Of a stretch of 64,000 nucleotides of DNA, positions 18,923 to 47,426 are shown piece after piece. Below the pieces are notes generated by a model, which was not told the DNA's origin, did not search any database, and saw only the letters and a list, made by a program, of their open reading frames with translations. How positions within the stretch are numbered: position 1 is the stretch's first letter; the number at the start of each line of letters is the position of its first letter. Made by a program: the position numbers and the translations under genes. This DNA comes from an uncultured Alphaproteobacteria bacterium (GTDB lineage Bacteria; Pseudomonadota; Alphaproteobacteria; Rhizobiales; Xanthobacteraceae), in NCBI GenBank assembly GCA_963821965.1, contig CAWGFY010000007.1, forward strand, positions 210,887-274,886. The letters run 5' to 3'.

Positions 18923-20260
18923 ATGAATCAACGTTTTGATACCATTCTAAAATCCGGCACCGTGGTCAATCAGGACGGTGAGGGCGTCCGCGACATCGGC
19001 ATCAAGGACGGCCGCATCGCCGAGATCGGCGGATTGGGACAGGCCGCCGCCGAAGTGATCGACTGCAAGGGCCTGCACATCCTGCCCGGCGTAATGGACA
19101 CGCAGGTGCATTTCCGCGAGCCGGGGCTGACCCACAAGGAGGATCTCGAGACGGGCTCGCTTAGCGCCGTCATGGGCGGGGTCACGGCGGTGTTCGAGAT
19201 GCCGAACACCGACCCCTTGACTGTCACGGAAGCTGCCTTCACCGACAAGATCACGCGCGGCCGGCATCGCATGCATTGCGATTTCGCCTTCTTCATCGGC
19301 GGCACCCGCGAGAATGTTCAGGATCTGCCTGAACTGGAGCGCGCGCCGGGTTGTGCCGGGGTAAAGGTCTTCATCGGCTCCTCGACAGGCGCTCTCCTGG
19401 TCGAGGATGATGCGAGCCTGCGCCGCATCTTCCAGGTGATTCGCCGCCGGGCCGCTTTTCATGCCGAGGACGAATATCGGCTCAATGAGCGCAAGCCGCT
19501 GCGTGTCGGGGGCGATCCGCGCTCGCACCCGGTATGGCGCGACGAGACCGCGGCACTGATGGCGACCGAGCGCCTGGTCAACCTCGCGCGCGAGACAGGC
19601 AAGCGCATCCATGTGTTGCATATCTCGACCAAGCAGGAGATTGAATATCTGCGCGACCACAAGGACGTCGCTTCCTGCGAGGCGACGCCGCATCATCTGA
19701 GCATGGCCGCGCCCGAATGCTACGAGCGGCTCGGCACCCGCGCGCAGATGAACCCGCCGGTGCGCTCGGCCGATCATCGCGAGGGCATCTGGCGCGGCAT
19801 CGCGCAGGGCATCGTCGACGTGCTCGGCTCCGACCATGCGCCGCATACGCTGGAAGAGAAGGCGAAGACCTATCCGGCGTCACCCTCGGGCATGACGGGT
19901 GTGCAGACGCTGGTGCCTGTCATGCTGGACCACGTCAATGCGGGGCGGTTGTCGCTGGCGCGCTTTGTCGATCTCACCAGCGCCGGCCCCGCGCGCCTGT
20001 TCAACATCGCGTGCAAGGGCCGGATCGCGGCCGGCTATGACGCCGATTTCACGGTGGTCGATCTCAAGCGCAGCGAGACGATCACGAACAAGTGGGTCGC
20101 CTCGAAGGCCGGCTGGACGCCTTACGACGGGATGCGGGTCACCGGCTGGCCGGTAGGTACCTTCGTGCGCGGCAAGCGCGTGATGTGGCAGGGCGAACTG
20201 GTGACACGGTCTTCGGGTGAGCCGGTGCGGTTCCTGGAGACGCTGAGGCCGAGCGCATGA
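18923..20260 (+). CDS. pyrC: Dihydroorotase (long type)
   Basis: DTQVHFREPG, EMPNT, MNPPVR, GSDHAPH. Confidence 0.88.
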   Translation: MNQRFDTILKSGTVVNQDGEGVRDIGIKDGRIAEIGGLGQAAAEVIDCKGLHILPGVMDTQVHFREPGLTHKEDLETGSLSAVMGGVTAVFEMPNTDPLTVTEAAFTDKITRGRHRMHCDFAFFIGGTRENVQDLPELERAPGCAGVKVFIGSSTGALLVEDDASLRRIFQVIRRRAAFHAEDEYRLNERKPLRVGGDPRSHPVWRDETAALMATERLVNLARETGKRIHVLHISTKQEIEYLRDHKDVASCEATPHHLSMAAPECYERLGTRAQMNPPVRSADHREGIWRGIAQGIVDVLGSDHAPHTLEEKAKTYPASPSGMTGVQTLVPVMLDHVNAGRLSLARFVDLTSAGPARLFNIACKGRIAAGYDADFTVVDLKRSETITNKWVASKAGWTPYDGMRVTGWPVGTFVRGKRVMWQGELVTRSSGEPVRFLETLRPSA

Positions 20261-20300
20261 TCCGGAAAAGTGGACACCGGTTTTCCGAAAACATCATGCG
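20254..20300. repeat. Short rhizobial palindromic repeat overlapping the pyrC stop
   Basis: CGCATGAT-CCGGAAAAGTGGACACCGGTTTTCCG-AAAAC-ATCATGCG nested inverted repeats. Confidence 0.75.
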
Positions 20301-20314
20301 TAGATGAGAGAGGC

Positions 20315-21813: not shown

Positions 21814-21982
21814 CTAGTGGAGCGGATTTGACGTTCGCTACCCTGTACACCGCGGGGCTCGAAAAGCGAACGTCAAATCCAAAGCTCCACTAGATTCAAT
21901 ATTTTGTTAGTGGTCCTTTGATTCCAACATTCGCAAAAGTGCTCGCTGAGACAGGATGCGAATGTTGGAATCGGACCACTAG
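21814..21982. repeat. Double-hairpin element with IHF-like spacer, copy 1
   Basis: CTAG-bounded hairpin (AAA bulge) + ATTCAATATTTTG + mirrored hairpin (TTT bulge). Confidence 0.9.
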
Positions 21983-27422: not shown

Positions 27423-27499
27423 CGGAGTGTGGCTCAGCCCGGTAGAGCACTGCTTTCGGGAAGCAGGGGTCGCAGGTTCGAATCCTGCCACTCCGACCA
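27423..27499 (+). tRNA. tRNA-Pro(CGG)
   Basis: CGGAGTG...CACTCCG-ACCA acceptor stem, anticodon arm CTGCT-TTCGGGA-AGCAG, T-loop GGTTCGAATCC. Confidence 0.97.
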
Positions 27500-45445: not shown

Positions 45446-45612
45446 CTAGTGCGGCGACTTTGAAGTTCCGATCAGTTGTCCCGCACACTCGCCATCGGAA
45501 CTTCAAAGTCAAAGCCGCACTAGAATCAAGGATTTGCTAGTGCTCCTTTGATTCCGAAGTTCGCAAACGAGGACGCCGCGATATGGTGCGAACTTCGGAA
45601 TCGGAGCACTAG
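45446..45612. repeat. Double-hairpin element with IHF-like spacer, copy 2
   Basis: Four CTAG termini; spacer AATCAAGGATTTG is a perfect WATCAANNNNTTR. Confidence 0.9.
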
Positions 45613-45628
45613 AAACAGGAGACCAACG

Positions 45629-46024
45629 ATGCCAACGCGCCGGTCTATCCTTTTGATATCAGCGGCATTCCTGGCAACAGGTTCGGACGCGGGCGCCGCT
45701 GCGCGCGATCCGATCAAGATGTTCGACACCGACGCCGATGGGACGCTCGACCTGGCCGAAGTGAAGAAAGCTGCAACGGCGCTGTTCGCAAAGCTCGACC
45801 CTGACCGTGACGGCACGCTCGACAGGCGCGAACTGGCAGGCAGGCTGACCGCGCGCGAGTTTGCGGCTGCCGATCCCGATCATGACGGCACGTTGACGCT
45901 GGATGAATATCTGGCCGTAGTCGAAAAACGCTTCCATGCAGCCAACCCGGACGGCGACGGAACGCTCGATGCAAGGGAGCTGCGCGCGCCGGCAGGTCGC
46001 GCGCTGTTGCGTTTGTTGAGATAG
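45629..46024 (+). CDS. lanM: Lanmodulin (lanthanide-binding EF-hand protein)
   Basis: Four closely spaced EF loops DTDADGTLDLAE, DPDRDGTLDRRE, DPDHDGTLTLDE, NPDGDGTLDARE with Pro at position 2 in three; export signal; AGGAG RBS. Confidence 0.88.
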   Translation: MPTRRSILLISAAFLATGSDAGAAARDPIKMFDTDADGTLDLAEVKKAATALFAKLDPDRDGTLDRRELAGRLTAREFAAADPDHDGTLTLDEYLAVVEKRFHAANPDGDGTLDARELRAPAGRALLRLLR

Positions 46025-46119: not shown

Positions 46120-46200
46120 ATGTCTTGGAAAACTCCGAAGATCGTCGAAGTGCCGGTGGGCATGGAAATCAACATGTACGCCTGCGCTGCGCGCAAGTAA
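46120..46200 (+). CDS. pqqA: PQQ precursor peptide (26 aa, not in the ORF track)
   Basis: MSWKTPKIVEVPVGMEINMYACAARK with W--P and E-x3-Y; GGGAG RBS. Confidence 0.95.
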   Translation: MSWKTPKIVEVPVGMEINMYACAARK

Positions 46201-47259: not shown

Positions 47260-47426
47260 CCAGTGTGGCGGTTCAGAAGTCCGCATCATTTTTGCCGCAA
47301 GGTCTCAATGCGGACTTCTGAACCAAAGCCACACCAGATTCAATAATTTGCTAGTGTCCTTTCGATTCCGAAGTTCGCAAACAGAGGTGCCGCGAGATGA
47401 TGCGAACTTCGGAATCGGGACACTAG
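47260..47426. repeat. Double-hairpin element with IHF-like spacer, copy 3
   Basis: Same architecture; spacer ATTCAATAATTTG; first hairpin ends degenerated to CCAG. Confidence 0.88.

Follow-up and report, generated by a model that had tools for sequence, protein, structure and literature searches.

A widespread, mobile two-arm DNA repeat with mirror-image hairpins in the Xanthobacteraceae and their order

An uncultured alphaproteobacterium of the family Xanthobacteraceae carries a long double hairpin for which a sequence-only reading had proposed three natures: a non-autonomous mobile unit with CTAG ends, a chromosome-organising site resembling BIME-1/RIB of Escherichia coli, or a structured RNA. 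Which of these is the element, and how does it enter new sites? The window analysed is a stretch of 64,000 nucleotides (G000:C7:210887-274886) from an assembly, G000, of 4.03 Mb and 60% completeness. Three copies of 167-169 bp had been reported in it, at 21814-21982, 45446-45612 and 47260-47426; all three were found there, and the window holds no further copy. Each folds into two long hairpins (z = -12.4, -13.1 and -11.5; 200 shuffles per copy). In the general layout, arm A reads CTAG-TG, a 6-bp outer stem, an inner stem of about 16 bp, a loop, an AAA bulge and CA-CTAG; a linker of 12-13 nt follows, and arm B repeats the layout of arm A as its reverse complement, making two inverted units with arms of 76-80 nt. 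The AAA bulge of arm A, the mirrored bulge of arm B and the 13-nt spacers were seen in the window as described. Among 207 full-length copies from the whole genome, the AAA bulge is present in 183, and the loops are centred on GCNGC in 119 and 154, against 23 and 17 after shuffling.

All three window copies lie on the plus strand. Arm A of copy 1 (21814..21893) consists of CTAG, a 6-bp outer stem, a 16-bp inner stem, a loop, a 3'-side AAA bulge and a final CTAG. Its 13-bp linker (21894..21906) has one mismatch to the IHF consensus, and a GATTC, of the form GANTC, spans the arm/linker junction. Arm B (21907..21982) is the mirror image of arm A and opens with TTAG, a variant private to G000 in comparison with the relatives G104 and G159. 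This copy is flanked by two minus-strand genes, for a DUF2385 protein and a NUDIX protein, and its subfamily is the largest, with 65 copies showing the same A/B arm pair. Copy 2 represents a 12-copy subfamily and comprises arm A (45446..45523), a linker (45524..45536) that matches WATCAANNNNTTR exactly and has GAATC at the junction, and arm B (45537..45612), which ends 17 bp upstream of the probable ATG start of a gene for an EF-hand protein. That gene (45630-46024), directly 3' of copy 2, encodes a small, secreted-looking EF-hand repeat protein (Pfam EF-hand). It is followed at 46120-46200 by a 26-codon ORF (MSWKTPKIVEVPVGMEINMYACAARK), which we take to resemble the PQQ precursor peptide PqqA. 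Copy 3 belongs to a separate 12-copy subfamily, with arm A at 47260..47337 and CCAG at each end of it, a linker with one mismatch to the IHF consensus at 47338..47350, and arm B at 47351..47426. The sole Rfam match in the window is a tRNA gene at 27423-27496.

Several features of the initial description need qualification. CTAG is indeed scarce in G000 (1804 observed vs 3929 expected), and it closes all four arm ends in copy 2, but TTAG opens arm B of copy 1 and CCAG stands at both arm A ends of copy 3. The spacers do lie within 0-1 mismatch of the IHF consensus (WATCAANNNNTTR, as it appears in part of PMC5896051); the term "exact", however, applies to copy 2 only, copies 1 and 3 having one mismatch each. 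Conservation "in structure, not sequence" was overstated, as the mean column identity among the three copies is 79%: they stand for three sequence subfamilies of one family.

The count of three copies also proved far too low. An iterated DNA profile HMM (model length 168) found 242 non-overlapping matches in G000, 207 of them of 155-180 bp, and none in a reversed-genome decoy at the same threshold. In total, the element occupies 37,495 bp, or 0.93% of the assembly, and contains 642 of the 1804 genomic CTAGs. About five subfamilies can be distinguished, in which arm A and arm B types are passed on jointly, and the fact that they are kept together implies that the unit moves whole. Identical and near-identical copy pairs are present. 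The proposed scan for further copies in related genomes gave family-wide and order-wide matches: a 25-letter core pattern, allowed up to two mismatches and with no control matches, was detected in 98 of the 251 family genomes (38 of 62 genera), with 0 to 114 matches per genome; at the level of the order, 29 of 301 genomes have it. In the other 153 family genomes the pattern was not found. The two-arm layout is retained in nearly all folded copies from these searches. By record name, the carriers include Bradyrhizobium (cultured isolates among them), Hyphomicrobium, Pseudorhodoplanes, Aminobacter, Martelella, Ochrobactrum and Roseibium. Four element queries against 72,556 plasmids gave no match in Sinorhizobium, Rhizobium or Brucella; an exact pattern had no match in viral contigs, nor did one query in phage records.

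Comparison of orthologous loci shows that the element is mobile. In four relatives, each compared over 0.39-0.78 Mb, most of the G000 sites for which the compared stretches contain an orthologue are empty: 18 of 26 in G104, 10 of 13 in G159, 17 of 17 in G385 and 16 of 17 in G045. A further 47 of 74 copies from the relatives are without a G000 orthologue and were left out. The site of copy 1 is filled in two of 29 relatives and empty in 27, and at three of the empty loci (L009, L014 and L016) the spacer holds other hairpin repeats, related to a type of which one arm lies in the window at 20251-20301. This shorter hairpin repeat, of the GCATGATC...GATCATGC type, has 30-49 matches in G000 from two seeds, and such shorter two-arm repeats are presumably CIR/RIME/Bru-RS-like. 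G045 and G159 are empty at the site of copy 2, where G104 retains just the linker and arm B; one contig joint in the relatives skips copy 2, with unread letters in between. Copy 3 corresponds to an empty site with one CTAG in G045, G159 and G104, the last of which has, about 14 bp upstream, an independent and oppositely oriented copy from a different subfamily. At five G000 loci, and also in L298, a younger copy is nested inside an older one exactly at an inner CTAG; tandem copies have one CTAG in common, and insertions are also found at terminal CTAGs. Empty orthologous sites, nested and tandem insertion at CTAG and a patchy copy number of 0 to 114 together bear out the suggestion of a non-autonomous mobile unit with CTAG ends. 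Orientation is mixed, and no replichore bias was detected in G000 or, among 100 of its 114 places, in the complete genome G520. Collapsed remnants, in which the start of one arm is fused to the end of another, occur in G000 at C5:1176489, C9:62030, C4:277643 and C2:114103 and suggest deletion by slippage between arm motifs.

The footprint of insertion is unusual in that the target is overwritten. Of 101 empty comparisons, 33 failed the 10/14 anchor and 68 were well anchored; exactly 4 nt separate the flanks in 41 of these 68, where the filled allele has CTAG...CTAG, and the gap differs from 4 nt in 27, compared with 12 of 127 controls. There are 21 unique sites, including one (C6:116832) inside another multicopy repeat, where the "empty" alleles may be paralogues; between these relatives, which are 87-96% identical and for which the filled/empty polarity depends on outgroup agreement, the empty 4-mer is CTAG at 3 of the sites and differs from it at 3-4 positions at 11. 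The expectation that empty sites retain one CTAG was therefore true at only 3 of 21. Among 62 intergenic CTAG controls outside elements, 33 are unchanged and one differs at three positions (p=2e-7 vs element sites), which rules out fast CTAG decay as the source of the non-CTAG empty sites. At several sites, moreover, an identical non-CTAG 4-mer is present in two or three empty genomes (ATTC, GCGC, CTCG, ATCG, TCCG). Variant left-end tetramers equal the inner tetramer of their own arm in 29 of 68 cases and the far right end in 6 of 68, and the empty-site 4-mers and terminal tetramers together led us to reject a classical target-site duplication. Target bases are partly kept at one end in some cases (ATCG or ATTC giving ATAG, and CCAG giving CCAG). 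Terminal changes between orthologues comprise 1 compensated and 13 one-sided, so that end correction after insertion looks too slow to mimic overwriting. The element carries both CTAGs and overwrites about four host bases at most sites instead of duplicating them, with a target consensus that is loosely Y-Y-N-G and a preference for CTAG-like sites. Changes are also more frequent at positions -1 and +1 (0.62 vs about 0.9), and this, with the gaps other than 4 nt, indicates that the length of the overwritten tract is not fixed at 4 bp.

A more conventional explanation would make the element a classical MITE, whose TA-GTG...CAC-TA ends act as terminal inverted repeats for an IS630/IS5-type DDE transposase, with TA or CTAG duplicated, IHF bending the middle, and empty sites that have drifted or were mis-polarised. 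TA termini are known from Correia, ERIC, RUP and CIR (Table 1 in the part of PMC2229807 concerned), nested and tandem insertions do make two CTAGs from one, and the empty site of copy 3 is CTAG; yet just 8 of 39 empty sites have a TA no more than 1 nt from the gap, and CTAG drift in the controls is too slow. A candidate enzyme seems at hand in the eight IS630-family copies of G000 (C4:212861, C5:451385, C5:534347, C9:28592, C9:165894, C6:133776, C10:9199 and C8:32301), which form two young types of 5 and 3 copies, more than 99% identical within a type, with split frames and TA flanks. They sit at CTAG-like sites, five of the eight at an element CTAG, two of these splitting the double-hairpin element, but this is not above the elements' 36% share of the CTAGs of the genome (p=0.11), and their ends start with GAGC where the element has GTG. 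DDE_3 genes were not found in five carrier genomes, among them the 99%-complete G104, and occur in 10 of 21 high-copy as against 13 of 21 zero-match genomes; at 30 DDE_3 loci they appear only as insertions beside or inside copies. Orphan half-arms bracketing a gene were not found in G000. We regard a classical MITE as unlikely.

The two host-centred options depend on what the stems and the linker do. If the element were a structured RNA (an mRNA stabiliser, an RNase III substrate or a terminator), pairing would be selected in transcripts, and the covariation is indeed strong, in agreement with the compensatory stem changes first noted in the window: at least two Watson-Crick types occur at 30 of 49 stem pairs in G000, and double changes at 37 of 48 pairs in a cross-genome alignment of 37 diverse copies. 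It is, however, strand-neutral. Inner stem pairs in G000 are Watson-Crick in 8341 of 8465 cases, with 37 G-T, 45 A-C and 42 others; 108 copies from other genomes give 4190 Watson-Crick pairs with 47 G-T vs 49 A-C; and when pairs are oriented by flanking genes, in the mRNA sense, G-U and A-C number 54 and 41 (p=0.22). That G-T is not commoner than A-C points to pairing at the DNA level and not in an RNA. Gene positions from our own simple gene caller put 203 of 209 copies in intergenic spacers. Where the two neighbouring genes run the same way, arm A leads in 75 of 123 spacers (p=0.02); of the 143 copies in co-directional or convergent spacers, 33 provide the TAG that ends the upstream gene and are hence transcribed together with it; and related S. 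meliloti repeats are described as transcribed in the part of PMC3738161 concerned; against this, both orientations are common, 60 of the 203 intergenic copies lie between divergent genes (668 of 2986 spacers overall), and Rfam has no match to the element. With no G-U excess in either orientation, the structured RNA option is highly improbable.

A domesticated chromosome-organising site like BIME-1/RIB, with IHF at the linker, gyrase or another host protein at the arms and a host role maintaining the element, draws on the linker and the stems. Linker length is 12-13 nt in 190 of 207 copies, at most one mismatch to WATCAANNNNTTR is found in 127 (0 mismatches in 24, 1 in 103, two or more in 80), 25 of the 66 exact matches in G000 fall in elements (not independent events, given shared descent), and G000 has two HU/IHF-family genes. 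Over the larger set, linker length is better conserved than the IHF letters. The commonest linkers read AATCAT, some lineages and families have AAACA in place of AATCA, and the linker of the 114-match expansion in G520 carries two mismatches. IHF binding at the linker is plausible from the letters, although not clearly required. The BIME-1/RIB analogy fits the layout, the IHF consensus is matched loosely, and the setting differs: BIME-1/RIB elements lie at 3' ends of transcription units, and the element is depleted at convergent 3' ends, convergent spacers holding 20 of 203 copies vs 497 of 2986 (p=0.01). Insertion sites are also mostly lineage-specific, and the core was not found in the majority of family genomes, as given above. 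As for the stems, 18 orthologous filled pairs (two of 20 were dropped as different elements at one site) have changes at 22 of 1476 stem positions (1.5%) and 59 of 741 loop positions (8%; p=3e-13), as well as at 24 of 347 in flanks and 17 of 288 in terminal tetramers; the linker (12 of 230) is not much better conserved than the loops. Taken together, a BIME-1/RIB-like role as the nature of the element is very unlikely.

The low stem divergence nevertheless calls for a cause, as mobility alone fails to account for stems 5-fold more conserved than loops. Unbiased arm-to-arm correction was considered and rejected: it predicts many double changes, while the changed stem pairs are 3 compensated and 16 one-sided. 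An unbiased correction of the palindrome would not lower divergence, which implies that the stems are under selection, are converted from copy to copy or are shielded from damage by being paired. A host role after insertion is possible in view of this conservation. A CcrM methylation site was likewise discarded as the invariant of the element. GANTC is found at the arm A/linker junction in 131 of 207 copies and in about 80 arm B stems, but the best-conserved linker base is its N, and lineages with the AAACA linker are without the site.

The account that we favour, and consider probable, is that of a non-coding mobile unit, formed by two mirror bulged hairpins with an AT-rich linker of 12-13 bp between them, which at most sites takes the place of about four host bases. 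A trans-acting enzyme that reads the folded arms and cuts at CTAG probably moves it. Arm A on the top strand would have the shape of arm B on the bottom strand, so one cutter could serve both. A single strand-specific hairpin cutter, acting once per strand at the leading CTAG, would set the unit free with a CTAG overhang on either side; annealing of these overhangs to a 4-base staggered target cut would explain the preference for CTAG-like sites; and mismatched target bases would be trimmed or displaced, leaving CTAG on both sides with occasional partial retention. The central linker may serve as a bend, loosely IHF-like, that joins the two ends. As to the class of the enzyme, a HUH/RAYT-like protein is a guess by closest analogy, HUH enzymes that read hairpins and tetranucleotides being the nearest precedent in the portion of PMC6006769 consulted. 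The usual HUH signatures were not found, and the missing replichore bias counts against movement of the IS200/IS605 type. A bolder extension, possible but doubtful, would see an order-wide class of mobile DNA with an undescribed chemistry, in which a structure-reading enzyme cuts mirror hairpins, one per strand, four target bases are overwritten with CTAG, target choice is nearly free, a ready TAG stop is supplied and the stems are selected by host or enzyme; the same chemistry could also move CIR, RIME and Bru-RS.

The mover search covered IS630/DDE_3, Y1_Tnp/RAYT, GIY-YIG and IS110, and among these families no cognate transposase was found. The proposed search for a transposase flanked by the same hairpins gave none at the RAYT, IS200/605, IS630 and IS110 loci examined. 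Y1_Tnp genes are present in 13 of 21 high-copy vs 7 of 21 zero-match genomes (p=0.12), in none of 30 examined of the 37 matches are element arms their flanking repeats, and G000 (60% complete) and G104 (99%) have none. The sole Y1 gene adjoining a copy is an IS200-type insertion at the terminal CTAG: in G462 (L360:1350-2010), an element with a 143-aa TnpA and GC-rich end hairpins has entered a copy at its terminal CTAG-like site. In G159, a RAYT-like gene (L376:1303-1845) has its own short flanking repeats, unrelated to the element. GIY-YIG and IS110 genes in five genomes are not flanked by element arms, no recurrent mobile-element gene or neighbour family accompanies 108 copies in 109 loci, and the genes between neighbouring copies include no candidate.

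Among known repeats, the element most resembles several groups without fitting any of them in full. The parts of the literature searched, among them PMC2267715, PMC1273637 and PMC2245857, contain no description of it, but it may overlap with a catalogued repeat of the CIR1-4, RIME1, MOTIF or Sm-1 to Sm-5 series. With CIR of Caulobacter and Brucella, RIME and Bru-RS, it has in common, as far as their accounts go, an alphaproteobacterial and intergenic distribution, two independently folding arms with a linker, TA termini and GANTC. Both kinds serve as IS landing sites, for IS711 in Bru-RS (PMC2266754, in part) and for IS630 and IS200 in the element. It is longer, at 168 bp compared with about 110 for CIR in the relevant part of the review PMC2229807 and 103-118 for Bru-RS; GANTC, which descriptions of the CIR type place in or beside the terminal loop of one arm, is found in the element where arm meets linker and in one stem; loops centred on GCNGC and 3-nt mirror bulges further distinguish it. 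The mechanism of CIR mobility is left open in the same part of that review. With REP/BIME (REPINs), the element has in common two inverted hairpin units, a terminal tetranucleotide, an IHF-like linker, and, according to part of PMC6006769, occupation of about 1% of the chromosome with lineage-specific expansion. Its arms, however, are 76-80 nt long in contrast to 21-65 in the REP accounts consulted; its tetramer is a paired CTAG, whereas REP has GTAG, GTGG or CGTC 5' of the hairpin, with GTAG/CGTC as an unpaired guide (PMC3733652, in part); and REP/BIME has a tnpA-REP/RAYT gene flanked by the same repeats, while the element showed no linked Y1 gene in 30 of 37 Y1_Tnp matches. TA-type MITEs (Correia/NEMIS, ERIC, RUP, QMITE1) are likewise small, non-coding and multicopy with TA ends, and an internal IHF-like site is described for Correia and QMITE1 in the sources as far as seen; but their ends pair as one long stem, whereas the arms of the element pair internally, overwrite the target and have no matching IS ends among those found. 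The ends of IS200/IS605 and of their non-autonomous derivatives also have one hairpin each, structure over sequence, a cut-site tetranucleotide and no classical duplication; they differ in a fixed, retained tetranucleotide and a replication-strand bias, the target tetramer of the element being neither fixed nor retained, both its ends being element-type and strand bias being absent. The element is a real, widespread, mobile two-arm DNA repeat of the CIR/BIME kind, though longer and differently marked.

Hundreds of young, polymorphic insertions with a four-base replacement footprint constrain the chemistry of two-arm repeats and make the question testable. As a landing pad for IS630 and IS200 and a source of stop codons and 5' leaders for many genes, the element shapes regulatory DNA in rhizobia-related soil bacteria. 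An enzyme that inserts DNA without duplication at loosely specified sites would, in addition, be of interest as a tool.

A separate intergenic repeat of about 520 bp was also encountered. Its long copies number at least 34 in G000 (C5:943343, C5:478092 and others); one copy lies in G104 at L121:3894-4420, and G159, G385 and G045 have many. It has no Rfam match, and a motif common to it and the double-hairpin element was not supported. IS110-family elements of G104 are located at this repeat (L439 and L444), and the double-hairpin element itself is inserted at one position of it (C6:116832 and C5:727631).
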